From contig CAZKBG010000001.1 in the NCBI GenBank assembly GCA_964551375.1, forward strand, positions 330,001 through 362,000: DNA of 32,000 nucleotides, read 5' to 3'. This document shows, piece by piece, positions 7,827 to 30,606 of the stretch. The stretch is from an uncultured archaeon (GTDB taxonomy: Archaea; Iainarchaeota; Iainarchaeia; Iainarchaeales; JAAZKV01). A program made the translations under genes and the position numbers. The notes below the pieces were generated by a model. The model saw only the letters and a program-made list of their open reading frames with translations. It had not been told where the DNA came from and ran no database searches. The number at the start of each line of letters is the position of its first letter. The stretch's first letter is position 1.

Positions 7827-8984
7827 GTGATGATTAAACGCCTCAAATATCAAGACAAGGAAATTATACTTGTCGGAACTGCCCACATTTCAAAGGAATC
7901 AATAAAACTTGTTGAAGAAACAATTTCAAAGGAAGAGCCAGATGTAATTGGCGTAGAGCTCGACAAAGACAGATTGTACCAGTTGATGTCTGGAAAAAAA
8001 TGGCAGGAAACAAATATTATTGAAATAATCCAGACCGGAAAAACAGAACTATTTTTACTAAACATACTTCTTTCAAATATGCAAAGACAGCTTGGAGAGC
8101 ATGTTGGGGTAGCTCCTGGAGCGGAAATGCTTGCCGCGTTAAAAATTGCGCAGGAAAAACAACTCCCAGTGCAGCTGCTTGACAGAGATGTCCGAGTTAC
8201 GCTAAAAAGAGCATTCAAAACAATGGGGATAATTGAAAAATTAAAACTCGGCGCAGCACTAATCGGCGGATTTTTTGGAATCGGAGAAAAAGTTACGGTT
8301 GAAAAAATTGAAGAGCTGAAAAAAGAGGACCTTTTGAATAACTTAATGAAAGAGCTTGGAAAACAGTTCCCTTCAATAAAAAAAGTTCTTGTAGATGAAA
8401 GGGATTTATTTATTTCAGAAATGATAAGAAAAAGCCCTGGAAAGAAAATTGTCGCAGTAGTAGGAGCGGGGCATATTGAAGGAATAATTGAGCACATAAA
8501 AAAAGACAAGAAAGTAAATCTTGCGGAAATAAGCGTTGTGCCAAAAAAACTTGGAATTTTAAAAATAGTTGGAATAGTACTCCCAATAATATTTGCGGTT
8601 CTTATCGGATATGGGTTTTATGTTAAAGGGCTTGAAACAACGCTCAATTTGCTTGGATACTGGATATTAATAACAGGCGGTCTTTCAGCGCTTGGAGCCC
8701 TTATTGCAAGAGCGCATCCTCTTTCAATAATAGCCGCGTTTATTTCAGCGCCAATAACAACACTTCACCCGGCTCTTGCGGCGGGATGGATAAGCGGGCT
8801 TGTTGAAGCAAAATTTAATCCCCCGAAAGTAATTGATTTTGAAAAACTCCCCGAGGTATCAACAATAGGCGGATTTTACAGAAACAGAGTAACGCACGTT
8901 TTGATAGTTGCAGCGCTCACAAATATCGGCGCAACAATAGGGGTAATCATAGCTTTCCCAACTCTTCTTGCTCTGCTTGCGTGA
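7827..8984 (+). CDS. TraB/PrgY-family protein with C-terminal membrane domain
   Basis: Motifs present: ILVGTAHISKESIKLVEE, PDVIGVELDKDR, PGAEMLAA, LLDRDVRVTLKR, DERDLFISEMI, VVGAGHIEGI. About 4 hydrophobic helices follow. GTG 7827 is immediately followed by ATG 7830. Confidence 0.8.
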   Translation: MMIKRLKYQDKEIILVGTAHISKESIKLVEETISKEEPDVIGVELDKDRLYQLMSGKKWQETNIIEIIQTGKTELFLLNILLSNMQRQLGEHVGVAPGAEMLAALKIAQEKQLPVQLLDRDVRVTLKRAFKTMGIIEKLKLGAALIGGFFGIGEKVTVEKIEELKKEDLLNNLMKELGKQFPSIKKVLVDERDLFISEMIRKSPGKKIVAVVGAGHIEGIIEHIKKDKKVNLAEISVVPKKLGILKIVGIVLPIIFAVLIGYGFYVKGLETTLNLLGYWILITGGLSALGALIARAHPLSIIAAFISAPITTLHPALAAGWISGLVEAKFNPPKVIDFEKLPEVSTIGGFYRNRVTHVLIVAALTNIGATIGVIIAFPTLLALLA

Positions 8985-9049
8985 AAATATTTCCTAAATC
9001 GGTTAGCAAGCACATAAGATTTAAAAGGAAAAGAATCCTAATTAGTGCG

Positions 9050-9619
9050 ATGGCAAGAGAAGAAAAATTTATACAAATGTGCCCCATATGCGGAGGCAAA
9101 AAGTTTGGTTTCTTTAAAGACGACAGGGCAACGGAGCCCGCAGGGCAGGAAATGTATGAATGCTACAGATGCGGAAATATATTTAGTTTCCCGCTTGAAG
9201 TTCCAAGAGGCGAAGCTCACAAATTAAAAGAAGTCCCGCTTACTCCAAAAATTTTAAGAGACACTCCAGCGAGCGCATTTACTCCGGTGGGAAATGTTGA
9301 AATCGGAGTTTATTGGAAAATACTTGGCGTAGTAATGGTAGTTTTTGGAATAGCCTACTTGATCATGGCATTTTTGCCTGTTATTTGCTTTGCACAAGGG
9401 AATGGAACACAATGCGAAGTAAATGCAACTCCTCAAGGATATACTTTCATGGGCTTGTCAGTAATGGCGGCAGGGTTTTACATGCTTATTGAATCTTACG
9501 AGTTATCAAGAAAAAAATTCAAACAGCCGTGGATTATGAAAATGGGGCTTGTGCTTGCGCTTTTAATAATAACAATTTACTTTGGCGCAGGAAGCATCGG
9601 CGCATTTATGCTGCCATGA
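9050..9619 (+). CDS. zinc-ribbon membrane protein, function unknown
   Basis: CPICGG...(x23)...CYRCGN is followed by about 4 hydrophobic helices. ATG 9050 lies 27 nt downstream of ATTTAAAA (9019-9026). The tracked ORF starts earlier, at GTG 8981, which overlaps the TraB stop (GTGA). Either start is possible. Confidence 0.6.
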   Translation: MAREEKFIQMCPICGGKKFGFFKDDRATEPAGQEMYECYRCGNIFSFPLEVPRGEAHKLKEVPLTPKILRDTPASAFTPVGNVEIGVYWKILGVVMVVFGIAYLIMAFLPVICFAQGNGTQCEVNATPQGYTFMGLSVMAAGFYMLIESYELSRKKFKQPWIMKMGLVLALLIITIYFGAGSIGAFMLP

Positions 9620-13970: not shown

Positions 13971-14028
13971 ACTAAAACACTAACACTAAAACACTAACAC
14001 TAAAACACTAACACTAAAACACTAACAC
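13971..14028. repeat. perfect 14-bp tandem repeat (ACTAAAACACTAAC) x4 plus a partial unit
   Basis: Identical units lie at 13971-13984, 13985-13998, 13999-14012 and 14013-14026, and a degenerate copy at 13957-13970. The repeat is intergenic: upstream of the YbaK-like gene and downstream of the 848-aa surface-protein gene. Confidence 0.95.
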
Positions 14029-14129: not shown

Positions 14130-16676
14130 TCAGCTTGCTTTTGCAGGCAACTCTGTTTTAACAGAAACCTTTTCAGTTTCTTTAGACTCTATTTTTTCTT
14201 TTTGAGAAGTTTTTTTTTGATTTGGAGAATTCTTTTTCAAATAAGAAGAAGTTTTAGGTTCCGAATCTGAATTTTTCAAATCAACAGCAGGGCCTGCCGC
14301 ATTCCCTTCACTTCCTTTGCCTTTTCTCTTTGACAATCTTGATCTTATTGCAAGAAGAACTAAAACTAATAGCACTACTAACAACACCTCAACAAAGGGT
14401 ATTGAATATGCAGAGAAAAACCCAGTCAAAGTAAGCCCTTTTCCAGCAGGCATTAGCGAAAATGACTTTGATTTGCTGAAATTCCCAGCCGAAGTAACAA
14501 TTACAAACACTGCATTTGCATCATGAACTGATGAATTATAATCATGCGGGATGAAAAGCTTCCCTGCGAGCGAAACTCCCGGAGCAAGGTAAGTATTTTT
14601 ATTCAAATCAAGAACTGCATTCAAATCCTTAACCAAAATATTGTTCAAATTAAATCCGCTATTTGAATCATTCTTTACAACTATCTCAATTTCAGCCAGA
14701 CCTGCGGCGTAATTAATGTCAATTGCGTTTAACGACAGCAAAATTTTATTTGAATCAACAAACTGCTTCGCTGGACTTGCATTTATTTTTAACAAGAGTT
14801 CTTTTGAAACATTTTTGTCATTGACAACAACAATTTTTGCGTTTAAAACTCCTTCTGTGTTTGCATCAGGAGAAGCATAAACAAATACTCTCTTTGATTC
14901 TTTTGGAGTTAATGAAAAGCTGTCTTCGCTTAATGAAACCCATGAAGGAAATGCTTTCTTTAAAGTATAAACTGAATTGAAAAACCCGGTGTTTGATACA
15001 TCCAAATCAACTAATTTTCCGCTGCAGCAATTTGCGTCAATTTCATACTTTGAAAGAGAAGCAATAAAATCATTGCACTTTTCCACGCCTAAATCAGAAA
15101 TGCTTATTGATTGTTCTACTTCCTGTTGAGCTGATTTTGCGGTGATTTTGTAAGTTTTTGAAAAATTACTTGGCACAAATCCTTTTACTGACACAGCCTT
15201 TTTTGAATTAGCGTCAATTACAAAAGGACCGGGGCTTATATTCAGCCAAGGGGCGTCAATTGAGAGTGAAACTACCTGCGTTCTTGTTCCTTTATTTTCA
15301 ACATCAAAAACATAATCAATGCTTAAATTTGAGCAAGTCCCAAGGTTTGAAACATCAGCAGTTAAATCATAGCAGTTCTCAAAATTGAATTTATAATTCA
15401 AATCTTTTGAGAAGCTCTGAGAAGAAATCCTTGCCAAAATATCAGAACTGCCCGCAGAGTTTGGAGAAACTATAAAAGAAACGCTTCTTGACTCGCCTTT
15501 TAACAAAACCAAGGATTTTGACTCAACTAACTTTCCATCAATGAAAAGAGATACATCAACTGTTGACTGATTTGTTCCCGTGTTTTTTACAATAAACTCT
15601 TCGCTTCTTTTCCCAAAGCACTGGCTTATTTCGGTTGATTTGCGTTCAATAGTCGCATCAAAGCAGTTTTCAAATTTGAACTCAAAAGGAATGTCAAAAT
15701 TTCTATCAAACTCTTTTGAATAAGCTCTAATAAATCCTGTTTTTATTCCATTGCTCTTTTTGATGCTTAAAGTTATATTTTCGCTTTTATTTTTATCAAT
15801 TAAAACAATGTTTTTATCAAGCGCTGCCAACTGCTGTGAAAGTTGCGACTTATTCGCGTCAAGAAGAGACAAACTTATTGTGTCAGGCCTCATTGAAACG
15901 CTCTTTACCTCAAACAATTCTTCCGAATCGCTTTCTTCGCACAAAGTTTTAGTATATTTAGAAGATTCGCCTAAAAGCTTTCCAATTGTAAACGGAGCTC
16001 CGCCTAAAACGGATAATGAAATGTTTTTTGAAATTCCAAAATTAGTCATTGTGTTTGCGGCAATAAGCTGGAAGGGATAATTTTTCGGCTCAGCGTTGCA
16101 AAAAGGATTCAATTCAAGAGTTCCTTCAAATGAAGAAAAAGGCGCAAGAACTATTTTTTCCTGAGGATAAACTGCCCAGTTTTCCATAAGTCCTTTTTGC
16201 AGCAAAACAAACTCATCAGTGAAAGCGCCTTTATTTTTTAAAACAAATTTGGTTTTTGCGCTCTCGCAAGGATTTATAGAAAAGCTTGGAGAAATTATAT
16301 TCAAATCAGCTGTGTGGCACTGTCTTACTACAAGATTGTATTCCTTCACTAAATTTTCAGGCCCTCTGAAATTTAATGGAATTTTATAATCTCCAGAAAA
16401 TGCGTAGCAGTCAGGAGTAATGAAAAGATAAATATCCGCGCAGGAATTTTTTGTCAAATCAATTACGTTTGGAGCAAATGAAAACCATTTTCCTTCTACT
16501 GAATCTGCTGAAACTGAGTACATGCCCGGAACAACAGAACAAACGCTCATTTTTTGCTTTACCTGCTCGCACTGGCAGAGATTTGCATAATTTGAGCCCG
16601 AAACTGTTAAAGCTGACGCAAAAGAAGCGCTTAATATGATTGTAATTAGAATTACTAATATTGCGCTATATTTCAT
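14130..16676 (-). CDS. large secreted surface protein with Cys-bracketed Ig-like (CARDB/NEW3-like) repeats, a C-terminal TM anchor and a Lys/Ser-rich cytoplasmic tail
   Basis: Signal peptide MKYSAILVILITIILSASFASA. Modules of the type ..C(F/Y/N)D..x10-13..C...V.N.G...W recur, e.g. NCFDATIERKSTEISQC..VKNTG and NCYDLTADVSNLGTC..VENKG. N-x-S/T sequons are frequent. The TM helix VEVLLVVLLVLVLLAI is followed by a tail of about 70 aa. ATG 16676 is preceded by GGGTTGGGG; the track uses TTG 16685. Confidence 0.75.
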   Translation of the reverse strand: MKYSAILVILITIILSASFASALTVSGSNYANLCQCEQVKQKMSVCSVVPGMYSVSADSVEGKWFSFAPNVIDLTKNSCADIYLFITPDCYAFSGDYKIPLNFRGPENLVKEYNLVVRQCHTADLNIISPSFSINPCESAKTKFVLKNKGAFTDEFVLLQKGLMENWAVYPQEKIVLAPFSSFEGTLELNPFCNAEPKNYPFQLIAANTMTNFGISKNISLSVLGGAPFTIGKLLGESSKYTKTLCEESDSEELFEVKSVSMRPDTISLSLLDANKSQLSQQLAALDKNIVLIDKNKSENITLSIKKSNGIKTGFIRAYSKEFDRNFDIPFEFKFENCFDATIERKSTEISQCFGKRSEEFIVKNTGTNQSTVDVSLFIDGKLVESKSLVLLKGESRSVSFIVSPNSAGSSDILARISSQSFSKDLNYKFNFENCYDLTADVSNLGTCSNLSIDYVFDVENKGTRTQVVSLSIDAPWLNISPGPFVIDANSKKAVSVKGFVPSNFSKTYKITAKSAQQEVEQSISISDLGVEKCNDFIASLSKYEIDANCCSGKLVDLDVSNTGFFNSVYTLKKAFPSWVSLSEDSFSLTPKESKRVFVYASPDANTEGVLNAKIVVVNDKNVSKELLLKINASPAKQFVDSNKILLSLNAIDINYAAGLAEIEIVVKNDSNSGFNLNNILVKDLNAVLDLNKNTYLAPGVSLAGKLFIPHDYNSSVHDANAVFVIVTSAGNFSKSKSFSLMPAGKGLTLTGFFSAYSIPFVEVLLVVLLVLVLLAIRSRLSKRKGKGSEGNAAGPAVDLKNSDSEPKTSSYLKKNSPNQKKTSQKEKIESKETEKVSVKTELPAKAS

Positions 16677-16691
16677 TATCCCCAACCCGCA

Positions 16692-16753
16692 AAACTAACT
16701 TAATCCAATTAAACTAACTTAATTTGTTTAAACTAACATACTTAAAACTAATT
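16692..16753 (-). repeat. imperfect ~19-bp direct repeats carrying AAACTAAC (GTTAGTTT on the coding strand) in the promoter region of the 848-aa gene
   Basis: AAACTAACTTAAT occurs at 16692-16704 and 16711-16723, AAACTAACATACTT at 16730-16743 and AAAACTAATT at 16744-16753. On the minus strand this gives GTTAGTTTAA twice (16718-16709 and 16737-16728), which is TATA-like. Confidence 0.6.
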
Positions 16754-16778
16754 ATCAGCTGAAATTAAATTCACTATG

Positions 16779-16828
16779 AAAAATTAAAACAAATAATTAA
16801 ATTGGATGCAATAAAATTAATGCATCCA
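16779..16828 (-). terminator. hairpin spanning the stop codon of the 828-aa gene, followed by T-tracts
   Basis: TGGATGCA (16803-16810) pairs with TGCATCCA (16821-16828) across a 10-nt loop that contains the TAA stop. On the minus strand, T4 and T5 runs follow (plus-strand A-runs at 16786-16789 and 16779-16783). Confidence 0.45.
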
Positions 16829-19303
16829 GACTTCTTTTGCTTCGCCCGCAGAAGCTTTAGCCACTACAGCAATGAATCCCACAAATAATATCAAAATAAT
16901 CGCTGCGACTATTCCGATGAATATTGCTTCAAGGGTTAAATCCGCAAGCCCAAACAATCCTGCGAAGAATCCTGTTCCTGACTTGTCAGGATTATATTCT
17001 ATTTCAAGATCAAAGCTTTTCTTGTTGATTAAATCCGCGCTTGATATTACAAACACTGGCTCAAACACGCCGTTAGTGTCACCTGCTTTGATTTTTCCTG
17101 AAATATTTGCTGACTTTCCTGACGCAAGAGTTGCGATTGTCACTGAATCAATGTTAACGTCCTTTGGAACGTTATCAAATGAAACAACAACATTCTTCAT
17201 ATCTTTTTCAGTATTGTTTCTAATCACAATTGAGTAAGTCGCGCTTGAGTTTCCCTTCATTTTAACTTTATTTGTTGAGCTTAGTATCTCAAGCCCGTCA
17301 AAGAAACTCTTTCCTAAAACGTTAAAGTAAATAGAAGCGCTTACTTCAACAGGACCTTTTAATTTTAGAGTAACTTTCTTGTCGCTTCCCACTCTTGCAG
17401 CGAGCCCAACTGATACTGCGGCGTAAATTTTCTTTGATTCGCCTTTCTTTATCACAAAGCTGTTTTCTGAAAGCGAAACATTTACGCTCCCAGGAGTATC
17501 AATTACTGAAATTACATAATTTGAATCAAGGTCCCCTGTATTAACCGCCTCGACTTCAAATACCTCAGTTTCTCCCTGAGTTATGTCCTTTGACTGAGTG
17601 TTAACAAATAACCCTGCTTTTGATTCAGGCGCAACGTTAACGCAAATTGTTTTTGATTCTTTATATGCATCCCATTCAGGACCGTCAACTGCAGACAGAG
17701 TCAAATAATTTTTTCCAGCAGATATTTCTTTTGGAACTTTAATTGTGTAATTAACCGCCCTTCCTTCACCGGCATTTAGAGTCACTGAAGAATATGCCAG
17801 TTCAGAAGGCATCCCAGTTAATTTGAAATTGAATGTTTTTGGATTAAAATAGCAGTCATCATTTCCGATTATTGGTCTTGAAATATTAAACTGCCCTTCA
17901 AGAGTCTGCCCTCTTCTAACATCGTAACATATGCTTGGAACTGAAAGCGAGAAAGTTCTTGATACAACGCTTGAACAATCCACTACTTCAACATCCATTC
18001 TTTTCTGAATGTGGAAGTCATCAGCATCGCCTAAAAGCGTGATTGACTGGTGCCCCAAATCAAGATACTGCGCGTTTATTACTAATTTCATTTCTTTCTG
18101 TTCTCCAGAAGCAAGAGTAACGCTGTCTCTTGTGAAATACGGAAGAACCATTGAGTTATCCGCAAGAAGCCTTATTTTCTTCTGAACTGAAGAAGTGTTT
18201 CTTACCATCACAGTAAATTCCTTTGACTGTCCTTTGCATACTTTTCCATCCGTTTCAAGAATTCTAAATCCGTCAAAGTTATTGCAAGTGCCTACTTCAG
18301 CGCTTATTCTTGTTTTGAGGTTTGTATCAAGCGCAAATACTTCAATATCATATTTTCTTTCTTCAGCCCCGCAGGTGTTTGTGTTTAGTGTAAAATACGC
18401 TGTTGAATTTGCTGCTGCGCAAACTTCCCCCGGAGTTACTGAAACATTAAGCAAATTATAAGGAGTTGATTCTGCGTCAAAATCAAAGCATCTTCTTGAA
18501 CTTGTGTTATTCACTAGTTTCATTTGAGTGCCGAATGAATTGCATCTCTCAAGGCAGATTCCGTAATTTGCCGCTTCAAGATAAAATCCTCTTTCAGCGC
18601 CATTGCTTGGATTTGCACCACTATCAAAGCAGTTTGAGCTTACTGAATATAGTAAATTTGCGTCCTTTCCTCTTGAATCAACCGCTCTTATTTTCATTGA
18701 AGAAGTAAGGTGCCTGTTTGAGCTTACATCGCAAGACAAATAATTTCCGTCTTCAAGGTAACAATTCAGCCCTGTTGGATTAACTTGTTCTATTAAACTA
18801 AATGTCACGTTTTTGCCGTCTTCGCGGTCGTTAATATAATCTTTCAAATTAACAAATCTTGAATTTGAGTCAGAAATACAAATCTGCGGAAGCGGGTTCC
18901 AAACAGGATTAAAATTCCTTACTGAAAGTGTAAAAAAGTCTTGTGAATAGTGTCCGAAGCTATCATCTACTCTTACAACAACTTCACTTTCTGAATCTCT
19001 GCATGAATTTATTCTGCATGAAATATAAGTATTGTTATCTATTACACAATTTGCAAGGCTTGTATCAGACTGTGAAACAATCGAGTATCTTAATGCAAGA
19101 ACGTTTGAGTCGCTTGAGTAATCAGGAAGATAGAACATTTTGTTTAAATCTTCAGTACAGCTCACAGTTCTTGAGGGAACATTTAATGAAGGAGAATTTG
19201 ATGCTGATGCGTCTGCAAATCCTGCAAAAGCAATTACTAACAGCATTACGCCTAAAATAATGCACAAATTGCTTAGACTAAAAAAACCTTTCTTATTCCC
19301 CAT
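16817..19303 (-). CDS. large secreted surface protein, paralogue-like of the 848-aa protein (Ig-like/CARDB-like repeats, C-terminal TM anchor)
   Basis: Signal/anchor segment FFSLSNLCIILGVMLLVIAFAGFADA. Cys-bracketed modules include GTCNNFDGFRILETDGKVC..VRNTS and VDCSSVVSRTFSLSVPSIC. CARDB-like strands include VEAVNTGD and IVIRNNTEKD. C-terminal TM helix is AIFIGIVAAIILILFVGFIAVV. A strong SD (GGAGGG, plus-strand ccctcc at 19311-19316) lies 7 nt before the ATG. Confidence 0.75.
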   Translation of the reverse strand: MGNKKGFFSLSNLCIILGVMLLVIAFAGFADASASNSPSLNVPSRTVSCTEDLNKMFYLPDYSSDSNVLALRYSIVSQSDTSLANCVIDNNTYISCRINSCRDSESEVVVRVDDSFGHYSQDFFTLSVRNFNPVWNPLPQICISDSNSRFVNLKDYINDREDGKNVTFSLIEQVNPTGLNCYLEDGNYLSCDVSSNRHLTSSMKIRAVDSRGKDANLLYSVSSNCFDSGANPSNGAERGFYLEAANYGICLERCNSFGTQMKLVNNTSSRRCFDFDAESTPYNLLNVSVTPGEVCAAANSTAYFTLNTNTCGAEERKYDIEVFALDTNLKTRISAEVGTCNNFDGFRILETDGKVCKGQSKEFTVMVRNTSSVQKKIRLLADNSMVLPYFTRDSVTLASGEQKEMKLVINAQYLDLGHQSITLLGDADDFHIQKRMDVEVVDCSSVVSRTFSLSVPSICYDVRRGQTLEGQFNISRPIIGNDDCYFNPKTFNFKLTGMPSELAYSSVTLNAGEGRAVNYTIKVPKEISAGKNYLTLSAVDGPEWDAYKESKTICVNVAPESKAGLFVNTQSKDITQGETEVFEVEAVNTGDLDSNYVISVIDTPGSVNVSLSENSFVIKKGESKKIYAAVSVGLAARVGSDKKVTLKLKGPVEVSASIYFNVLGKSFFDGLEILSSTNKVKMKGNSSATYSIVIRNNTEKDMKNVVVSFDNVPKDVNIDSVTIATLASGKSANISGKIKAGDTNGVFEPVFVISSADLINKKSFDLEIEYNPDKSGTGFFAGLFGLADLTLEAIFIGIVAAIILILFVGFIAVVAKASAGEAKEVWMH

Positions 19304-19305
19304 AA

Positions 19306-19983
19306 CTAAACCCTCCTATTTACTCTTGCGATAAATGCAATCAATAAAACGGCTGCAATAAGAACCATTATCCAAAACAACACCCATTCAAACGGAGAAA
19401 GTTTTTCAAGATCTTCATTTAAAGCCCCTATGCTGAAAAATGCTCCAATCGCATTTTCAGTGTTTGATGCACTTTTTTTCTGGAAAGATAAAATTATTGA
19501 GTTTCTGTCGGCTTTCTGCCCCACCATTGCCTCAATTGTCGCATCAACATCCCCGCTGATGTTTGAGTTATTATAAACCACAATTTTTGCTTCTGAAGTT
19601 GAATTTGGAAGAATTGTTTTAGGAGCAAATACTTCTGAACGAACGGGAGAATAAAAATTAACTACCACATTAGCAGTGCTTGTTGAGTCATTTGTTAATT
19701 TAACATAAAATGTTGCTTTATCATTCACCACAACGCTTTCTGGAGCTGAAATATTTAATGCGTGCCCGTATGAGCCTATTAGTAGAATGAAAAATAAAAG
19801 AGCAACAAGCAGATATTCCTTATCCATTTTGAACATGCCCCCCATCCCTTTTGAATCAGGAAGGTCAAAGCCCAAAAGCATTTTTGAAAGAGACTTTTTT
19901 GCAGGAGTTTTTGGCTTTGCTTCAGCTGGAGTTTTTGATGCAACATCTTTTGGCTTTGCGCCCTCGGCCACGTGTTCACTCAT
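19306..19983 (-). CDS. bitopic membrane protein with one Ig-like ectodomain and a Lys/Pro/Ala-rich N-terminal tail
   Basis: The first ~55 aa are low-complexity (KPKDVASKTPAEAKPKTPAKK). They are followed by LLVALLFFILLIGSYGHA, an Ig-like segment (FYVKLTNDSTSTANVVVNF) and the C-terminal TM helix WVLFWIMVLIAAVLLIAFIARVNRRV. The stop lies 2 nt from the next start. GGGGTTGGG lies 5 nt upstream of ATG 19983. An internal start at MFKMDKEY is an alternative. Confidence 0.65.
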   Translation of the reverse strand: MSEHVAEGAKPKDVASKTPAEAKPKTPAKKSLSKMLLGFDLPDSKGMGGMFKMDKEYLLVALLFFILLIGSYGHALNISAPESVVVNDKATFYVKLTNDSTSTANVVVNFYSPVRSEVFAPKTILPNSTSEAKIVVYNNSNISGDVDATIEAMVGQKADRNSIILSFQKKSASNTENAIGAFFSIGALNEDLEKLSPFEWVLFWIMVLIAAVLLIAFIARVNRRV

Positions 19984-20009
19984 TAATGCCCAACCCCAAT
20001 AAAACTATT

Positions 20010-20052
20010 AACTTTGCCTGCAAAGTTGTTAACTTTGTTAAATTACAAAGTT
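20010..20052. promoter_or_regulatory. two adjacent inverted repeats with identical arms (AACTTTG-N4-CAAAGTT and AACTTTG-N8-CAAAGTT)
   Basis: First repeat: 20010-20016 pairs with 20021-20027. Second repeat: 20031-20037 pairs with 20046-20052. The left arms are 21 bp apart. The pair lies between the TATA box at 20082-20089 and ATG 19983. Confidence 0.5.
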
Positions 20053-20081
20053 ATTCAATAAGTAATTTGCTGCAGAAGGAG

Positions 20082-20089
20082 TATATAAA
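20082..20089 (-). promoter_or_regulatory. TATA box (TTTATATA on the minus strand) for the 225/828/848-aa gene unit
   Basis: Plus-strand tatataaa reads TTTATATA on the minus strand. A T5 termination-like run for the upstream 84-aa gene lies at 20108-20112 (plus-strand AAAAA). The predicted TSS is near 20059. Confidence 0.45.
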
Positions 20090-20156
20090 GATAACGCCTT
20101 AAATCCAAAAACAGACAAACTGATTATTATACACAAAAGAGCAAAATAACCCAAAA

Positions 20157-20411
20157 TTAAGCAGTATTAGCAGGGGTTTGAGGAGGACTAACCACCGCAA
20201 CATTAGCCCCGCTTGAAGTGCTTGTTGAAACAGAGCCTGTTAAAAGAGATGCATTAAATTCCTTCAAATACTGGGCAACTGATTGCCCCGCAGCCGAAGA
20301 TGCGCCGCCAAAATCAGGAACCGATGGAGGAACAACAGTAGTAACCGCAGCAAAAACAACCGCAAGCAATAGCAGCACTACCACTCCAATCGCAATAATT
20401 CTTTTCATCAT
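20157..20411 (-). CDS. small secreted or anchored Ser/Thr/Ala/Pro-rich protein (84 aa)
   Basis: The N-terminal hydrophobic segment MMKRIIAIGVVVLLLLAVVFAAV is followed by a low-complexity S/T/A/P tail. The gene is co-directional with the cluster and has AGGGAT 5 nt upstream of the ATG. An antisense 73-aa ORF exists and is less convincing. Confidence 0.5.
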   Translation of the reverse strand: MMKRIIAIGVVVLLLLAVVFAAVTTVVPPSVPDFGGASSAAGQSVAQYLKEFNASLLTGSVSTSTSSGANVAVVSPPQTPANTA

Positions 20412-20458
20412 AAAAATCCCTTTAATTCTACTTCAATAACATACTAACCTAAACACCA

Positions 20459-20471
20459 ATATTAAACTAAC
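20459..20471 (-). promoter_or_regulatory. GTTAGTTTAATAT promoter-like element upstream of the 84-aa gene
   Basis: Plus-strand ATTAAACTAAC at 20461-20471 is identical to 16708-16718. On the minus strand it reads GTTAGTTTAATAT, about 50 nt upstream of ATG 20411. Confidence 0.4.
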
Positions 20472-20481
20472 ACCCGAACCA

Positions 20482-23400
20482 TTATTTATTTACTATCTTA
20501 AGCCACTTTATGCCATTAAATCCAAATCTTTCCCCGCTTGCCATTAATACTGCAACTCTTTTGTAAGTTGTGTCAGTTGGAGTCTCAGCAACTAACGCAG
20601 CATACTGCTTATTTTCAATTACAATCCAAGCAGGATTGAAAACCATATTTTCAGTGCCTTTCAATAATTTTGGCTGAGTGAAACTAAAGTTAGTTCCAAG
20701 CGACTTCATCTGCTCGCTGATTGACTGCGAATTTGTCTGGAAAGAATAATTAGGAGTCTTTGGCTCAACACCGTAATTGAAAACAGTAGGCTCAACAATC
20801 AAAAACTTTCCTGCAATATCCTTCATGAAAACATACCTCTGGTAAACAACATTTTTATCATCAGACCAAACCATCTGAACTCCGCTCAAAGTATCAACTG
20901 AAGACGGAGCAAGATTGTTCACCGCGTCATATACAAACTGCTGCATTGCAGCATCAACCGCAGTCGGAGCCGTATCAACAGGAGTTGGAGTTGCCCTCAA
21001 TCCAGGCAGTTCAATCACATCATGAAGAGTAATATCAGTCGCAGGATCGCAAGTAGGGTCATATGCGCTTTTTGGAACACAGCCAAGCCCCAAATTATTC
21101 AAAACATTTCTTGTCCAGTCCTGCTGGTCTAAAAGCTTGAAATCATTAATAGTCCCCTGCCCTATGTAATTTGCAGTAGCAGTGTCAAGCTGAGTTCCTT
21201 TATCGCTTGAAGTTGCGCTTGAATCCTTACTTTTTAACTGAGCCTTCAAATCATCAACTGCTTTATACGCAGCATCTCTTTCAGCAGCAATCGATTTAGT
21301 TGAAGTTCTTGCAGCATCCCTTTGAGCTTCAGCCGCCGCTTTATTTTTCTTTTCATCAGCAAGCTGTTTCTTCAAAGAATCAATCTGGGCAGAGTCAGCG
21401 CCAGTCTGTCCTTCAAGATCTTTAATTCTTGCTTCAAGGCCTGCAATTGAATCAGCATAACCGGCAATTCCCGCTTCGAGCTCTGCCTGGGCATATTCAG
21501 CAGTAATTGCTCTCTGTGTAGCATCTCTTGCTTCATCAGTTTTGGCTTTTAATTGAGTAGCAAGATTAGCCGCCGCCGCATCCAAATCTTCATAATTGCT
21601 TAAAGAAATCCACAAGCTTGTTTCAAGAGATTTATTTTTTGCTTCTAAATCCTTAATTGTCTGTTCTGCTTTGACAAGAGCTGCCCTTGCTGTTGCAAGT
21701 TCATTTGTAGGAGCGCATGAAGCAGCAGGAATAGACGCGCCTGTTGAAACTCCCGCACTGCAGGTTGTAGGCGCAGTTCCGCCCTTGATTTGCAAAGTCA
21801 CTGAAGTCTTTTTGCAAGTCCAGTTGTCAATATTTTTATCAAACACAATTGATCCATCCTTGGCGCAAACACCCTGCTGGATATCCTTATCGCCAGCTGT
21901 AATAGTAAAACCGCCCTTAGCCTGCTTATTGTTCATAGTCAAATAGTCCGCAATCCACTCAACTTTAACTTCCTTTGAAGTATGATAAGGCAAATTATTC
22001 ACAACAACAACCCACTTCTTGCTGTCAACAGGGTGCTTAATGAAAGCGCTGAACTCATCAGCAGCGTTAGAAGAATTGGAAGAAACAATCTTGCCGTCAA
22101 TCATAAATGAATGCTTCACAATAGAAGGATCAATATACTTCTCAATGCTCCAAGAAGAAGTAGCGCTGAACTTCTTTGTTGAAAGAGAGGATTCAAAACC
22201 ATCCTCAAATTCTCCGATGAAATAACCTTGAGTATAATTTCCAAGAGTTGCTGCCCCGCCCCCAGTGTAAGTAAATGCCTGAATTATTGGATACCCTTCA
22301 GTTGCAACTCCAACTGCAAGCTTCTGATTCATGAAAGTATCAAACTCTCCGACAACTCTGCTTCTTGCCCTCTGGGAAGAATAACTTGAAATCCCCATCT
22401 GAACAGGAACTAACGGAGCTGAAACAACGCCAAGCAAAGTCTTGCCAACTGCGCTAACTCTTGACATCCAAACGCCTTTTCCAAATCCAATGCTTGCCCA
22501 TGCTTTTGCATCGCTTTCATTTCCAGTAAAAATATCTTTTGTGCTCCCCCAAAGCCCTTTGAAGTAATTTCCAAATCCTTTCCAAAGACCGTCCCACCAG
22601 CCGTCATTATCAATAACGCTTTTCTTAAAATCAGCAGCAACATCCGTAATGTCTTTCTTTAACGCACCGCTGTTATCAGTAAATAATGGAGTATAAACAG
22701 CATCACAATAATTCATGTTTGTGAATTTATCAGGTCTTCTGATGAAAGCGCACTTTGAAGTGCTTAATTTTGTCTGAACATCATTATGCGCAATTGTGGC
22801 AATTGCCGGATTAAATCTTACAAACACTGCTATTGCATAATCTTTTCCATTTGTAAGAGTTGTTTTTAATCCTGAAAGATTACATTCAAATACTTTATCA
22901 TTTCCGCTTCCCTTGTTTGGGTTCCAGGCAATATTTTTAATAACGGTTTCAATTGTAACATTATCCTGCGGAACTGCTCCTTTTGGCCAGCAATACTGCT
23001 GATAAACTGCTTTCTTTGTTGAAAGGTCATAAACTTGATAATCAATGTAATAAACAACAGGCGGGTCTTTTTCAGCAATATCCGATTCAACCTGCCCAGT
23101 CATTGTTAAACTTGAAGTTAAAAGAGATGCAATCCCATCCCAACCAGGCGCAGTGTCCATCTTATTCAATAAATCTTTTTCAAAATTCATATTGTTTGCA
23201 GTATTTGGCTGAACAACAATAACTTCAGGCCAGTACTCGGAAGGAATAATGCTTCCATCTTCATTTCCAATCATTTTAATATTAAAAGTATCATATTGAG
23301 TTGAAGTAAAAGGAATTGCCCACACTTGATTATTTTTATTCGCAAATGCTTTGAAGAACTCAATCTTTGGACCTGCAAGAGAAGCTTCTCTTTGTGAAAA

Positions 23401-24297
23401 CAAAAGACCCATTTTTGCAACATTAATAACTTCAAGACCAACTTGAACAATCAACAAAGCGCCGAATCCCTTTGCCATAAAAGTTTTGAATCCAGGAGTT
23501 CCAACAGTCCAAGGCTTAACAACCTTTGGAGGAGTAGGCTCAGGAACAACAGGAGTTGGAGTAGGAGTAACAGGCTCAGGAGTAGGAACAACAGGAGGCA
23601 CTGGCTCAGGAACAACAGGCTTAGGAGTAGGAGTAACAGGCTCAGGAGTAGGAACAACAGGCTCAGGTGTAACAGGAGTCACTGGTTTAGGAGTAGGAAC
23701 AACCGGCTCAGGGTTAGGGTTAGGCGCAGGAACAGGAGTTTGTCCGCCGTTTCCAGGACCGCCGGCGCCGCTTCCGCCATTAACTGTAATCTTAATTTCA
23801 TTTATATTTACTAATTTTCCTTTCGCAGCAGCCTCAGCAGATGCTTCAGCAGCAGTGCCGGCCCCAACTTTTTCAGGAGTATTAGGCGCAGGAGTTACTG
23901 GTTCAGGAACAGGGAATTTAGTAATATCAATTTTCCAAGCCTTTCCAACCTGTTGAACTTTATCAATAGTAGTATTGAATTTGTAAGAAGTTACTTTTTC
24001 AGTAGGAGTAGTGTAAAAAGAAGTCCCCTCAGTTATATTATAAACAGAATTAAGTTTCACTCTCAAATCAGCAGCATTGGCAGGCTTTACTGCGCTAATA
24101 GCGGTTTTTGGCATCCCTAATTTTTCAAAAGCAGCTCTTACAAAGCCCACATCATCAGTTGGGACAGCAGTAATTTCAAAACCAAGATTGCTTCCCGCCT
24201 TGTTTATCAAAGTCGTGTCAACAGCAGTTGCTGAAAAAACAACCATTGAAAATAGAATCAAAAAAAGCACTAAAACTGCCCGCTTGTTAACATTCAT
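20482..24297 (-). CDS. giant secreted protein (~1271 aa): signal peptide, Pro/Thr stalk, hydrophobic segments, Ala-rich coiled coil, C-terminal beta-rich domain; function unknown
   Basis: ATG 24297 overlaps the upstream stop as ATGA and is preceded by GGTGG 6 nt upstream. Signal peptide: MNVNKRAVLVLFLILFSMVVFSATA. PT-rich stalk at nt 23515-23742. Hydrophobic segment GFGALLIVQVGLEVINVAKMGLLF at nt 23401-23469. A 160-aa heptad-like Ala/Lys/Glu region at nt 21226-21705. The track start at 24315 (MRRWFC) is less likely. Confidence 0.75.
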   Translation of the reverse strand: MNVNKRAVLVLFLILFSMVVFSATAVDTTLINKAGSNLGFEITAVPTDDVGFVRAAFEKLGMPKTAISAVKPANAADLRVKLNSVYNITEGTSFYTTPTEKVTSYKFNTTIDKVQQVGKAWKIDITKFPVPEPVTPAPNTPEKVGAGTAAEASAEAAAKGKLVNINEIKITVNGGSGAGGPGNGGQTPVPAPNPNPEPVVPTPKPVTPVTPEPVVPTPEPVTPTPKPVVPEPVPPVVPTPEPVTPTPTPVVPEPTPPKVVKPWTVGTPGFKTFMAKGFGALLIVQVGLEVINVAKMGLLFSQREASLAGPKIEFFKAFANKNNQVWAIPFTSTQYDTFNIKMIGNEDGSIIPSEYWPEVIVVQPNTANNMNFEKDLLNKMDTAPGWDGIASLLTSSLTMTGQVESDIAEKDPPVVYYIDYQVYDLSTKKAVYQQYCWPKGAVPQDNVTIETVIKNIAWNPNKGSGNDKVFECNLSGLKTTLTNGKDYAIAVFVRFNPAIATIAHNDVQTKLSTSKCAFIRRPDKFTNMNYCDAVYTPLFTDNSGALKKDITDVAADFKKSVIDNDGWWDGLWKGFGNYFKGLWGSTKDIFTGNESDAKAWASIGFGKGVWMSRVSAVGKTLLGVVSAPLVPVQMGISSYSSQRARSRVVGEFDTFMNQKLAVGVATEGYPIIQAFTYTGGGAATLGNYTQGYFIGEFEDGFESSLSTKKFSATSSWSIEKYIDPSIVKHSFMIDGKIVSSNSSNAADEFSAFIKHPVDSKKWVVVVNNLPYHTSKEVKVEWIADYLTMNNKQAKGGFTITAGDKDIQQGVCAKDGSIVFDKNIDNWTCKKTSVTLQIKGGTAPTTCSAGVSTGASIPAASCAPTNELATARAALVKAEQTIKDLEAKNKSLETSLWISLSNYEDLDAAAANLATQLKAKTDEARDATQRAITAEYAQAELEAGIAGYADSIAGLEARIKDLEGQTGADSAQIDSLKKQLADEKKNKAAAEAQRDAARTSTKSIAAERDAAYKAVDDLKAQLKSKDSSATSSDKGTQLDTATANYIGQGTINDFKLLDQQDWTRNVLNNLGLGCVPKSAYDPTCDPATDITLHDVIELPGLRATPTPVDTAPTAVDAAMQQFVYDAVNNLAPSSVDTLSGVQMVWSDDKNVVYQRYVFMKDIAGKFLIVEPTVFNYGVEPKTPNYSFQTNSQSISEQMKSLGTNFSFTQPKLLKGTENMVFNPAWIVIENKQYAALVAETPTDTTYKRVAVLMASGERFGFNGIKWLKIVNK
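23537..23661 (-). repeat. 66-nt (22-aa) tandem duplication inside the Pro/Thr stalk
   Basis: The 59-nt blocks at 23537-23595 and 23603-23661 differ at 3 positions. They encode PVVPTPEPVTPTP(K/T)PVVPEP(V/T)P. Confidence 0.9.
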
Positions 24298-24950
24298 GCA
24301 GAACCACCTGCGCAATACACAGCGGTTTCATCAACCATTGTTTTTGTAAAATCAACAAACTGCTTTTCAGCATCCAAATCAATCAATAAAGGCATTGAAT
24401 ATAAATCATAAGTTAAAATAAAATCAGAATTTTTATTTGACAATGCTTCAACATCATTATACATTGACTGCGCTTTTGAAGGAAGCGAGTTAACAAAAGT
24501 CAAATCATTACAGCTGAATTCCTTATTCGCGCCTTTTGCCAAATCATTCAAATAAATTTCATTTTTCATTCCAAAATCGATTGCAGAAGCGTACAAATCC
24601 GCTGCTGCTGACAATTCGTCAGAAACTTCTTTTGACTCCGCCCTTGAAGCAATACTGTCTGAAAAATTAGCCAATTGAACTTTCACTTTTGCAAGATTTT
24701 CCTTTTTCTCAACCCAAACAACTTTATTTGCGCTGGATAAATTAACCATGTTCAACTGCTGAACGTTGTTTATATTCACATCATTAATCTCAAAAATATT
24801 CAAAATCTCGCCGTAACCTGCTTCTAGAGATACTTTTTGGAAAGGCAAAAAAGAAATTGCGCCTTTATTTGTATAAAGATAATACCCAGCGGCGATTAGT
24901 ATCACTATTACAAGCAGAATTATCATGTTTCGCCAGCGCTTGTCCATCAA
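24294..24950 (-). CDS. N-terminally anchored membrane protein (218 aa), first gene of the surface cluster
   Basis: TM anchor: MMDKRWRNMIILLVIVILIAAGYYLY. The ectodomain looks helical and shows no motif I recognise. Its stop TGA overlaps the ATG of the giant gene (ATGA at 24294-24297). Confidence 0.65.
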   Translation of the reverse strand: MMDKRWRNMIILLVIVILIAAGYYLYTNKGAISFLPFQKVSLEAGYGEILNIFEINDVNINNVQQLNMVNLSSANKVVWVEKKENLAKVKVQLANFSDSIASRAESKEVSDELSAAADLYASAIDFGMKNEIYLNDLAKGANKEFSCNDLTFVNSLPSKAQSMYNDVEALSNKNSDFILTYDLYSMPLLIDLDAEKQFVDFTKTMVDETAVYCAGGSA

Positions 24951-25117: not shown

Positions 25118-25882
25118 ATGGCTAAAGTGAACGGCAAAAACATTATGCTTACAAGCGAAGAGGCTTCAATGCTTGAAGAAGGACACGAATTTGAACTCAT
25201 TCCAAACCAAAAAGGAATGTTCCTCTTAATCGACAAGGAAAAGATTAATGAAAAAGAAGCCCCAAAGCCAAAGCATGAGGAAAAAAACGCTGAAGAGAAA
25301 GAACAAGTAATCGGGCTTATAAAAAAAGCAAGGCTCTCAGACCTTGTGGAAGGAAAATTTGAAACCACGCTTGATGAAAAGCAAAAAAAAGCGCTTTTAT
25401 CCCTTGTTGTGGAAGGAAAAGTATTTGTATTCAAATTAAATGAAACCTACAAAAAAGGAGTTTATAGAGTAAAGGATGAAATTATTGAAGAAGCGAAAAG
25501 AGAAAAAAAAGAGTCAGAAGATTTTAACGCGCCTGAAAAAGAATCAAACGCATACAACCTTGGAGCAGACGGATTTATGATTATCAAAGGAAAGGACGGG
25601 GCAAGCAGAGCAAGCCACGAATTTGAAAGAGATATTAAAGAAGGACTCTTAAGAGGAATTCGAAGCTTTGACGGAAACTATTATTTAATCCAAACTGATT
25701 TACTCATACCTTATCTAAACAAATCAGTAATGTCATTCGCTCAAAAAGAAAACCAGACAATTGAAGAGCTGGCGCAGAATTTGAAAGTTTCCAAAGTTCT
25801 GACAAGAATCGTCTGCGAATTTTTAAAAGACGAAGGCGAGCTGATGGAAAAGAAAAAAGGAATTTATCACTACATCAAGTAG
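25118..25882 (+). CDS. Lys/Glu-rich protein with two winged-helix-like segments (putative DNA-binding protein)
   Basis: The C-terminus IEELAQNLKVSKVLTRIVCEFLKDEGELMEKKKGIYHYI and the internal KKALLSLVVEGKVFVFKLNETYKKGVYRV both look like a helix-turn-helix plus beta-wing. TTTAAATA (25078-25085) lies upstream. The gene is divergent from the surface cluster. Confidence 0.5.
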   Translation: MAKVNGKNIMLTSEEASMLEEGHEFELIPNQKGMFLLIDKEKINEKEAPKPKHEEKNAEEKEQVIGLIKKARLSDLVEGKFETTLDEKQKKALLSLVVEGKVFVFKLNETYKKGVYRVKDEIIEEAKREKKESEDFNAPEKESNAYNLGADGFMIIKGKDGASRASHEFERDIKEGLLRGIRSFDGNYYLIQTDLLIPYLNKSVMSFAQKENQTIEELAQNLKVSKVLTRIVCEFLKDEGELMEKKKGIYHYIK

Positions 25883-29289: not shown

Positions 29290-30606
29290 ATGAAAGGGCA
29301 CAATAAACTTGCATTACTGTTTGTAATGCTTATTTTCTCATGCGTAGCGGCTCTTGCGCTTTCGGCAGATGAGGCAATTGCAATTGCAACTGTTCAAAAC
29401 AACTTTCTTTCAAGCGGAGAAACAGCATCAGTTGCGAAAGAAATGATTTCTTATAACGGCGACAAATTTATCATAGTTGCGGCGCAAAGCAACTCAAAAG
29501 CAAATTGTTACATACCAATAAAGAACCAGACAGGCGAGATTTACTCAAATGATTTGGGAATAAGAGAGCTCATCAAAACAACAATAGTTTATACGCAGAC
29601 TGATTCTCTCAAAAACAGCACAAGAGCGGCAAGCTGGCCGTTTTCATACTCCACTCAAAACTCTCTTGGCGACTGGGCAAATGATTTTACCACCCTAATG
29701 ACGCAGATAATCACAGTTGAAACTGAACTAAATAAAATTAATATGACTGAAGCAAAAGCTCTTGCGGTAAAAGCAAATGAAGCGCAGGCGCTGGCGGAAA
29801 TTACTTCAGATTTATGCGCTGATATTTCAAGAGATGTTGAAAGAGCAAAACAACTGGAGCAGAGCTTTTTAGACAGCCCTGATTCAAATGAAGTTTCAAA
29901 ATATGAAACGGCCTATAAAAATTATTTTGAAAAAATCAGCGAGCTGAAAAACAATTACACAGAGCTTGACAACAGGCTTAATGTTCTAAGCCAAGGAATT
30001 GGAAGCCTTGAAACAAACCAGCTAACAATTGACCAGAAAAGAGGACTGTTAAATTTACTTTCAATGCCTGTTAATGCTTCAAGACTCCCTTCATTTTTCA
30101 ACGAAAGCGTTCAATTAAGAACCACAATTGAAGGAATTTTCAGCGATGCAAAAAACAGCGACAGCTATGCTTCAACACTTGCTTCAAGAAAAAACAGAAA
30201 CGAAGCATGGAAAGCATTATACGGATACAACGAAAGCCTTGTAAAACTTGACAAGAGCTTCACTACACTTGAAAACGCAAGCAACGCAATACTGCTTGAA
30301 GAAAATGTGAATTTATGGGTTAATCAGGACGGAGTTGAGGCATTGAAAATAAACTGGAGCTCCGCAAAAAACAGATACAGCACTGCAGAATATGAAAAAG
30401 CAAGGGATTTTGCGTCAAGAGCAAAAAAGAATGTTGAACAAATAATGGCTGAAGGAGTGGTTCCAGCAGTGGACAATTCGCAGGACTTAATAGTAAAAGT
30501 AATAGGCGGGCTGATTGCAGCAGTGGTGATTATATTTGTTATTGAAAAACTATTCCTTAAGAAAAAGAAAAAACCGGAGGAATACGATGAAGCAGAATAT
30601 AACTAA
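29290..30606 (+). CDS. secreted helical/coiled-coil protein with C-terminal TM anchor (438 aa)
   Basis: Signal peptide MKGHNKLALLFVMLIFSCVAALALSA, a long helical region rich in N-x-S/T sequons, and TM helix VIGGLIAAVVIIFVI followed by KKKKKPEE. TTTAATAT lies about 25 nt upstream of the ATG. Confidence 0.65.
   Translation: MKGHNKLALLFVMLIFSCVAALALSADEAIAIATVQNNFLSSGETASVAKEMISYNGDKFIIVAAQSNSKANCYIPIKNQTGEIYSNDLGIRELIKTTIVYTQTDSLKNSTRAASWPFSYSTQNSLGDWANDFTTLMTQIITVETELNKINMTEAKALAVKANEAQALAEITSDLCADISRDVERAKQLEQSFLDSPDSNEVSKYETAYKNYFEKISELKNNYTELDNRLNVLSQGIGSLETNQLTIDQKRGLLNLLSMPVNASRLPSFFNESVQLRTTIEGIFSDAKNSDSYASTLASRKNRNEAWKALYGYNESLVKLDKSFTTLENASNAILLEENVNLWVNQDGVEALKINWSSAKNRYSTAEYEKARDFASRAKKNVEQIMAEGVVPAVDNSQDLIVKVIGGLIAAVVIIFVIEKLFLKKKKKPEEYDEAEYN

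Follow-up and report, generated by a model that had tools for sequence, protein, structure and literature searches.

A 32-kb stretch of DNA from an uncultured archaeon (contig CAZKBG010000001.1, positions 330,001 to 362,000; hereafter the window, with position 1 as its first letter) contains a cluster of six consecutive genes for predicted secreted or membrane-anchored proteins, which we designate g1 to g6 in the order of transcription. The GC content of the window is 34-43%, and the source organism can be assigned to the archaea because Pus10 and NucS are encoded in the window. The source contig comprises 946,135 bp (946 kb), and together with related contigs of 788 kb and 625 kb this indicates a small genome. 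By its size, such a genome may belong to an episymbiotic archaeon of the DPANN group. A first-pass annotation had interpreted the cluster as a candidate for an uncharacterised cell-surface or host-contact apparatus. We analyzed the six genes, their spacing and their conservation in related archaea.

All six open reading frames (ORFs) of that annotation were found again at the same positions of the minus strand. Gene g1 (24294-24950) has a likely ATG at 24947 and encodes 217-218 aa. For g2 (20482-24315) the ATG at 24297 leads to the 1271-aa form present in NCBI (P0001). Gene g3 (20157-20411) encodes 84 aa, g4 (19306-19983) a small membrane protein with an immunoglobulin (Ig)-like domain and g5 (16817-19303) a protein of 828 aa. 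The product of g6 (14130-16685) has 848-851 aa, and the ATG at 16676 gives the 848-aa form (P0031). Signal peptides and membrane segments were called with a Kyte-Doolittle hydropathy scan; the helices of g5 are also visible in an AlphaFold model. The scan reproduced the N-terminal hydrophobic segment in all six products, and g4, g5 and g6 additionally possess a C-terminal membrane helix. Searches of Pfam, NCBIfam and PHROGs identified no enzymatic, ATPase, pilin or glycosyltransferase domain in the six products, as had been proposed. The domain matches obtained were restricted to Ig-like domains in g5 and g6 and to a coiled-coil-type region in g2.

Related loci were collected by searches starting from g2, g5 and g6, by one genome scan and by one metagenome scan. 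This procedure yielded about 20 distinct related contigs, all from uncultivated archaea and several of them 0.6-0.95 Mb in length, which were annotated using family hidden Markov models (HMMs) and BLAST. The names of the samples suggest that landfill leachate or anaerobic digesters were the probable source environments.

The elements that had been cited for a tight coupling of the genes are present in the window. The stop codon of g1 overlaps the start codon of g2 in an ATGA at 24294-24297, and only the two nucleotides tt separate the stop codon TAG of g4 from the ATG of g5, with GGAGGG located upstream. The intergenic region before g4 (19984-20156, minus strand, 173 nt) contains a T-run (gtttttgg) and a TATA-like box (ctttatatac); judged from these elements it is likely to comprise the terminator of one operon and the promoter of the next. 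A hairpin (TGGATGCA ... TGCATCCA, followed by an A/T-rich tract) spans the stop codon of g5 at 16803-16828 on the minus strand (-12.1 kcal/mol, z = -3.3). From such signals three or so transcription units had been deduced, but the spacing in the relatives favours two co-directional operons. The gap before g4 measures 119-261 nt and exceeds all other gaps within the cluster in each of the relatives for which genes were called. The distance between g4 and g5 does not exceed 16 nt in the relatives. Between g5 and g6 it is at most 36 nt in most of them, or the genes overlap, and therefore the hairpin at the g5 stop codon is not conserved. The stop codon of g1 overlaps the start of the giant gene g2 in most loci, and this arrangement is kept in L001, L015, L033 and the contig encoding P0038. 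In L004 the called giant starts 35 nt past g1, and an overlap results only with an alternative upstream start. We therefore distinguish an operon A (g1-g2-g3) and an operon B (g4-g5-g6).

The three products of operon B are paralogs. A BLASTP comparison of g5 with g6 gave an E value of 8e-6 over the C-terminal 200 aa, and hhalign aligned both proteins over 416 columns with a probability of 99.1% (E 1e-18). The smaller protein g4 was aligned by the same method with g5 (probability 95.9%, E 6.3e-9) and with g6 (76%, E 2.2e-5). All three proteins share a unit that consists of the last Ig-like domain, the motif G-[LF]-F-[SG]-x-[GY], the membrane helix and a basic tail, and g4, composed of a single Ig-like ectodomain, the motif variant GAFFSIG, the C-terminal membrane helix and the tail ARVNRRV, is a miniature of the C-terminal end of g5 and g6. 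The corresponding motif reads GLFGL in g5 and TGFFSAY in g6. The C-terminal membrane helix and the basic tail were found in all 11 members of the g4 family. The first-pass annotation had regarded g4 as bitopic. An N-terminal hydrophobic segment is indeed present, but in most relatives it resembles an ordinary signal peptide, so that g4 may not be bitopic. A second proposal, that Lys/Ser/Pro-rich tails link the surface proteins to the cytoplasm, was not supported by the comparison. The Lys/Pro-rich extension of about 50 aa at the N-terminus of g4 (19819-19983) and the Lys/Ser/Pro-rich cytoplasmic tail of about 70 aa of g6 (14133-14345) are confined to the sublineage of the window, L001 and L009 and are therefore not part of the core of the module. 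The orthologs of the rest of the clade show a short, signal-peptide-like N-terminus of g4 and a short basic tail of g6.

The earlier assignment of g5 and g6 as Ig-repeat proteins was corroborated by profile matches above the family cut-offs and by a structural model. According to its sequence, the type-I membrane protein g5 starts with a signal peptide, continues with 7-8 Ig-like domains in tandem and has a membrane helix at aa 791-818 and the tail KEVWMH. The domains are beta-sandwiches of the ASH/CARDB/FixG_C type with conserved Cys pairs, and the match to FixG_C (4e-10) reached 40.3 bits at a cut-off of 25.6. An AlphaFold model based on a 14-sequence alignment (mean predicted local distance difference test, pLDDT, of 79) shows an N-terminal helix, 7-8 tandem sandwiches in an all-beta arrangement and a C-terminal helix. 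When this model was compared with the PDB by Foldseek, all hits were tandem-Ig proteins of a generic kind (TM-scores of about 0.15), namely HYDIN/ASH-type proteins of the ciliary central apparatus, the MG domains of complement C5 and alpha-2-macroglobulin, and titin. None of the top 50 matches was named as an S-layer protein. The product of g6 comprises a signal peptide, tandem Ig-like domains with Cys pairs, the TGFFSAY motif and the membrane helix. It matches CARDB with 6.3e-5 (23.6 bits, cut-off 22.7), and relatives of g6 match NPCBM_assoc (8e-10) and FixG_C (4e-11). These memberships describe a fold class and not a function. The isoelectric points of the two proteins are 5.1 (g5, 20 Cys) and 8.0 (g6, 16 Cys), and many of the Cys residues are invariant within the families. 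The 14 homologs of g5 show 40-77% identity. Most g5 orthologs, among them those of L005, L006, L014 and L015, have a length of 1025-1100 aa and carry an additional Cys-rich N-terminal part of about 240 aa that is missing in the 828-aa protein of the window; g5 of L004 is shorter still (643 aa).

Operon A starts with g1. This protein has a cytoplasmic stub with the sequence (M)DKRWRN and a single membrane helix; its ectodomain measures about 180 aa and contains two invariant Cys. In an alignment with nine relatives the stub, in the form [DN]K.W.N, and both Cys are conserved. The g1 protein matches no family of Pfam or NCBIfam; one weak PHROG match of unknown function was obtained (2.4e-4).

The giant protein g2 is secreted and lacks a C-terminal anchor according to the hydropathy scan. 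A signal peptide and a small N-domain are followed by a Pro-rich linker, a conserved core, a variable region, a coiled-coil-like stretch and a C-terminal domain. The Pro/Thr/Val-rich linker (aa 135-268, 23512-23913, minus strand) is partly encoded by tandem DNA repeats of 21, 45 and 66 nt at 23537-23712 with up to 94% matches, and therefore its length could vary by slippage or recombination. PTPV-type linkers occur likewise in the giants of L008, L017 and L032. The conserved core (aa 262-720, 22156-23532, minus strand) opens with a Gly/Ala-rich hydrophobic helix (GFGALLIVQVGLEVINVAKMGLLF). Besides the N-terminal segment, the hydropathy scan showed a weaker hydrophobic stretch past the Pro-rich linker (aa 279-305). 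It was considered as a membrane span, which is unlikely, as it contains Q, E, N and K residues, the core downstream has invariant Cys and LysM domains follow in an ortholog. The best conserved part of the core (22516-22908, minus strand) has the pattern FxC[DN]L[ST]GL ... Y ... NP ... C ... C. This segment, common to the giants, measures about 130 aa; 2-3 of its Cys are conserved, and it shows no catalytic-looking motif. The coiled-coil-like stretch (aa 872-1037, 21205-21702, minus strand) comprises about 165 aa and precedes the C-terminal domain of 240 aa. It matches SMC_prok_B (1.5e-6) and the Crescentin rod (1e-3), but neither match comes near the cut-off of its family.

An HMM of the g2 core was compared with 1.84 billion representative proteins. 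Only P0002 and P0003 gave strong matches in this exhaustive search, and P0028 and P0029 are remote but genuine homologs; P0028 occupies the same syntenic slot on a related contig. Most second-position giants could be connected by iterated searches and constitute a single family that is highly divergent and limited to the clade. When g2 was searched with phmmer in the PDB sequences, coiled-coil or low-complexity noise was all that was returned. The part of the giant that corresponds to the coiled-coil-like stretch differs between lineages; it is shorter in P0002 and replaced by LysM repeats in P0003. The latter protein (L004/L013, 5057-9946) contains three LysM domains (E 4.6e-24, 84.5 bits, cut-off 20.9), which shows that the giant's distal part is extracellular. 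LysM domains are unusual in archaea, and their presence in this sequence suggests binding to a polymer containing N-acetylglucosamine in that lineage. In the Pfam searches LysM was not found in g2 of the window, and no giant other than P0003 contained any Pfam domain. The LysM repeats of this single ortholog are the sole direct hint to the function of the giant.

The third protein, g3, begins with a signal peptide or anchor, followed by the motif GQSVAQYLKEFNASLLTG (nt 20235-20288; SVAQYLKEFN) and a Ser/Thr-rich tail, and represents a minimal carrier of this motif. In the relatives, 150-350 aa of variable sequence follow the motif in the protein at the third position. The regular expression S[VILM]..[YW][VLIW][KR].[LMFI]N was run against the six-frame ORFs of all loci (149,778 aa) and gave 17 matches. 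Twelve are located just past the signal peptide of the third-position protein. The remaining five come from loci without a third gene (L008, L022, L026, L030 and L032), where they lie at the C-terminus of the giant. Not a single match was detected elsewhere in these loci. This pattern of fission and fusion implies that g2 and g3 are functionally linked and that the motif is a conserved functional element. The i, i+3/4, i+7 spacing of its hydrophobic residues indicates that the motif is likely to form an amphipathic helix.

The six-gene layout recurs across the roughly 20 related contigs, which confirms that the cluster is not a chance juxtaposition. The closest relative, L001, has an identical set of six genes with identical flanks, although g2 is only 59% identical. 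In all loci covering the region g4, g5 and g6 are present in constant order on a single strand, and the next gene after this trio is almost always the one for a protein with a tRNA-editing domain. A g1-like gene followed by a giant is located upstream in 11 of the 14 loci that cover this part, including distant ones such as L014, L015, L033 and the contig of P0038, where the gene products have lengths of 217, 1407, 308, 182, 1077 and 784 aa. In some relatives, as in L014 (5353-5979, plus strand) and L005 (7415-7963, minus strand), an extra protein of 182-214 aa lies in or beside the cluster; it is basic and contains hydrophobic stretches rich in Gly and Ala, and the window lacks a counterpart.

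The proteins of the cluster diverge faster than those of the flanks. In the same genome pairs the identity to the window was 70-89% for the cysteine desulfurase and 77-89% for the valyl-tRNA synthetase (ValRS) of the flanks, compared with 35-76% for g5, 29-64% for g4 and 28-64% for g6; g1, g2 and g3 were frequently below the detection limit of BLAST. Such a difference fits the pattern expected of exposed surface proteins. The abundance of N-x-S/T sequons had also been pointed out. Their density in the cluster is indeed 2.8 times that of the 15 cytoplasmic proteins of the window (1.29 versus 0.46 per 100 aa), but shuffling demonstrated that it corresponds to the expectation from the N/S/T-rich composition. 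A positional enrichment was thus rejected; g4 alone exceeds the expectation, with 5 sequons observed and 1.8 expected.

Taken together, the original reading of the locus as a surface module was right in its central point, a conserved and uncharacterised cluster of surface and membrane proteins without an enzyme, and overstated the role of the tails, the number of transcription units and the weight of the sequons. The paralogy of g4, g5 and g6, the hypervariable character of the g1-g3 unit and the changing place of the g3 motif had escaped it. We lean, with modest confidence, towards one lineage-specific cell-envelope module in which a conserved Ig scaffold displays a diversifying, adhesin-like giant. 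The constant presence of the trio and the occurrence of g1 and the giant in 11 of the 14 loci support a single module. Operon B would provide three paralogous membrane proteins with disulfide-braced strings of Ig-like domains as ectodomains, one domain in g4 and about 7-8 in g5 and g6. These proteins may assemble via their common membrane-proximal unit into a conserved scaffold that rises from the cytoplasmic membrane in the manner of a stalk or of an S-layer-like coat. Operon A would contribute the exposed, fast-diversifying part. The g1 protein, made in step with g2, may hold or mature the giant at the membrane, and the motif on g3 or on the C-terminus of the giant could be the point at which the variable part docks onto a partner that is conserved. 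The giant itself would be the ligand-binding or adhesive element, directed to a host or to a substrate, and its outer domains appear to have been swapped among lineages, with a coiled coil in the window and three LysM domains in one ortholog. A role in host contact is plausible, and g4-g6 are candidates for S-layer proteins. A more specific version for host attachment, peculiar to this clade of small-genome archaea, would regard g4-g6 as a stalk into which interchangeable giants are plugged by the 10-residue helix, in cis or in trans on g3, with the core and its Gly-rich hydrophobic helix engaging the envelope or membrane of the host and the outer domains setting the host range. We consider this version, taken as a whole, improbable.

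Several observations weigh against a single module with an S-layer-like base. The loci L005, L006 and L019 contain neither g1 nor the giant and have kept only a g3-like protein, secreted and 225-406 aa long, whose gene immediately precedes g4; operon B can thus occur in the absence of the giant. Synteny extends equally to the flanks, and consequently the adjacency of both operons may reflect the collinearity of the whole clade. The AlphaFold model of the g2 core, built from three sequences, reached only a pLDDT of 33, and the hydrophobic helix at the beginning of the core leaves the topology partly open. No S-layer family (PF05123, PF05124 and PF07752/DUF1608 in Pfam at E<=1; TIGR01564 and TIGR01567 in NCBIfam at E<=0.1) was detected in the six proteins. 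Classical S-layer proteins are acidic and nearly devoid of sulfur-containing residues, unlike g5 and g6 with their 16-20 Cys. Finally, no PGF-CTERM or other sorting-signal model of NCBIfam matched the six isolated C-termini, even at E<=10.

In the main rival explanation the two operons are mere neighbours in a collinear clade: g4-g6 would belong to an ordinary envelope of the S-layer type and g1-g3 would be a separate adhesin operon that is adjacent only because of the conserved gene order. The synteny of the housekeeping flanks, the gap of 119-261 nt with promoter-like sequence between both units and the three loci that keep g4-g6 without g1 or giant are what it would predict. Yet the genomes without g1 and the giant still have a motif-bearing protein directly upstream of g4. 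Moreover, the slot between a 254-aa gene and g4 is filled solely by secreted proteins of the g1, giant and g3-type families, apart from the Gly-rich extra protein of L005 and L014, and strand and order remain unchanged even where g6 is only about 30% identical. We therefore regard two unrelated neighbours as rather unlikely, and the remaining explanations as less likely still.

The next alternative is that the Ig membrane proteins belong to a secretion or membrane-remodelling complex of the arCOG01314 type. The arCOG01314 neighbourhood was predicted to encode such a complex and includes the Ig-like, 'S-layer-like' arCOG02487 and the Ig protein arCOG02884 with two transmembrane helices (Makarova et al. 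2015, PMC5898192). A DPANN-specific family of small secreted proteins, cls.004306/NEQ255, is often located beside such genes (Makarova et al. 2019, PMC6393860). By description the architectures correspond to g4, with one Ig domain and two membrane segments, to the Ig-like, S-layer-like g5 and g6 and to a small secreted protein, and a BatD-like Ig protein is encoded nearby at 30536-31438. The defining partners are missing, as no DUF4350 protein (arCOG01314), MoxR-type AAA+ ATPase or vWA-Ig protein was found among the ORFs of the window or in the related loci. Although the architecture of g4 would match PF07760, none of the 11 family members gave a match at E<=1, and we rejected this assignment. 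Membership in a complex of this type is very unlikely.

A surface filament of a kind other than type IV, for example one assembled by donor-strand exchange, with g3 or g4 as the subunit and g2 as the tip, has even less in its favour. Small secreted proteins, g3 and g4, adjoin large ones, and the conserved short motif could in principle be a donated strand. The cluster encodes no ATPase, as is the case for the chaperone-free 'threads' of archaea. On the other hand, g4 has its own membrane helix and basic tail throughout its family, g3 of the window with about 60 mature residues is too short for an Ig subunit, and the spacing within the motif, as read from the sequence, is helix-like and not strand-like. 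A class III signal is also not conserved: a FlaFind-type regular expression matched one of 23 g5 sequences and none of the 21 g4, 20 g6 and 10 g1 sequences, and of g2 it matched the protein of the window only, so that the signal is not kept in the orthologs. Pilin-type signal peptides were thus rejected. Neither a pilus assembly ATPase nor a TadC/FlaJ platform protein was present in the window or in the gene tables of the related loci. A filament of this kind is hardly to be expected.

The large, hypervariable, orphan-like proteins and the weak PHROG match of g1 could point to an integrated virus or mobile element that carries the cluster as its cargo, but this idea is close to refuted. In about 20 relatives the cluster occupies one fixed chromosomal site, flanked by the same housekeeping genes, and genes for an integrase, a capsid or a terminase are absent. 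PHROGs gave only two weak matches that are of unknown function or compositional and hence no meaningful ones. The GC content resembles that of the flanks except in the Pro/Ala-rich part of g2, and neither a template/variable repeat pair of a diversity-generating retroelement nor a reverse transcriptase was found in the window, so that such an element was rejected as well.

The flanks consist of housekeeping genes, as previously described: ValRS, acylphosphatase, tRNA-Trp, a tRNA-editing-domain protein, cysteine desulfurase, a PHP-domain protein and a CDP-alcohol phosphatidyltransferase. Divergent from g1 lies the gene for a soluble, Lys/Glu-rich protein of 254 aa (25118-25882, plus strand) without a match in Pfam or NCBIfam. 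It is kept at the same place in every relative covering that position (54-76% identity) and could, to judge from its location, encode a regulator that shares a divergent promoter region with g1. On the other side of the cluster, the intergenic region between the stop codon of g6 (14130) and the start of the 145-aa tRNA-editing-domain gene (13932) contains a perfect 14-nt tandem repeat with 4.1 copies and 100% match (GTGTTAGTGTTTTA on the minus strand, 13971-14028), 40-95 nt upstream of the latter gene. About 4 kb from the cluster we found a second pair of surface proteins, encoded by overlapping genes on the plus strand. The first (29290-30606), of 438 aa, combines a helical ectodomain with a signal peptide, a membrane helix at the C-terminus and a tail rich in Lys; the second (30536-31438) has 300 aa with BatD/NPCBM_assoc-like Ig domains and a C-terminal membrane helix. 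This pair is kept beside ValRS in L001, L005, L006 and L019 and is also present in L024. A further gene on the plus strand (8981-9619) encodes a protein of 212 aa with a zinc-ribbon-like N-terminus (CxxC...CxxC), two membrane helices and no Pfam match; its GTG start overlaps the 3' end of a TraB/PrgY-family gene (7827-8984).

How symbiotic archaea with small genomes recognize and attach to a host is an open question, and no envelope protein of DPANN archaea has been firmly assigned (Nanobdella paper). The locus analyzed here is a compact candidate, located at a single fixed chromosomal site across the whole clade. It combines a conserved base with a hypervariable outer protein, whose domain swaps, such as the LysM domains in one lineage, could track the host or the substrate. 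The core of g2 represents a clade-restricted protein family without a known domain, and the short motif has a clear history of fission and fusion and is directly accessible to binding tests. Should the module turn out to be the ordinary envelope of the clade, it would still provide S-layer candidates for an uncultivated lineage.

The comparison with characterised systems agrees with the first-pass annotation in that no named system could be equated with the cluster: in Pfam, NCBIfam and PHROGs none of the six products matched one, and we found no description of a cluster of these six genes in the literature. The most similar proteins by description are the putative S-layer and anchor proteins of DPANN archaea. 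The S-layer anchors proposed for the cultivated Nanobdella aerobiophila (candidates MJ1_0299, MJ1_0309 and MJ1_0707) are Ig-fold proteins that have a signal peptide and, at the C-terminus, a membrane helix, and MJ1_0160, NEQ300 and Micr_00292 are the lattice proteins proposed in cultivated DPANN archaea; the same paper states that no S-layer protein of DPANN has been determined yet. Both sets of proteins have several Ig-like folds between a signal peptide and a C-terminal membrane helix and are rich in sequons. Both are also restricted to small-genome archaea and lack matches to classical S-layer families, which here also applies to the 11 members of the g6 family. In contrast to those anchors, the proteins of the window form three paralogs in one operon with a common membrane-proximal unit and the G-[LF]-F motif, g5 and g6 are rich in Cys, and the trio is tied to a hypervariable giant, a partner protein and a movable motif, which were not described for the former. 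A candidate S-layer protein of Micrarchaeum carries a domain of the PF05123 type, which the proteins analyzed here lack.

The SlaA/SlaB pair of the Sulfolobales shows a similar division of labour between an anchored beta-sandwich protein (SlaB, comparable to g5 and g6) and a large outer protein without an anchor (SlaA, comparable to g2), with the genes next to each other. No match in sequence or fold was found, the 50 best Foldseek hits including no protein named as an S-layer protein. SlaB contains a coiled-coil stalk that is absent from g5 and g6, and the outer protein here is hypervariable, unlike a lattice former, which is subject to packing constraints. Furthermore, g1, g3 and g4 are additional components in the window. 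The S-layer glycoprotein of Haloferax volcanii (csg) consists of an Ig-like array with a PGF-CTERM anchor. A tandem Ig-like array that leads into a short motif, a membrane helix and a basic C-terminal end is common to this type and to the proteins of the window, and the C-terminal ends of g4, g5 and g6 have the tripartite shape. The motif here is G-[LF]-F-[SG]-x-[GY] and not PGF, the proteins are rich in Cys, and no archaeosortase is encoded in the 32-kb window of the 946-kb contig. The two halves of the cluster thus compare differently with what has been described. For the g2 core family and the movable motif no match was found in Pfam, NCBIfam, PHROGs, the PDB sequences or the literature, whereas the scaffold half (g4-g6) is a variation on Ig-type surface proteins that are already known.

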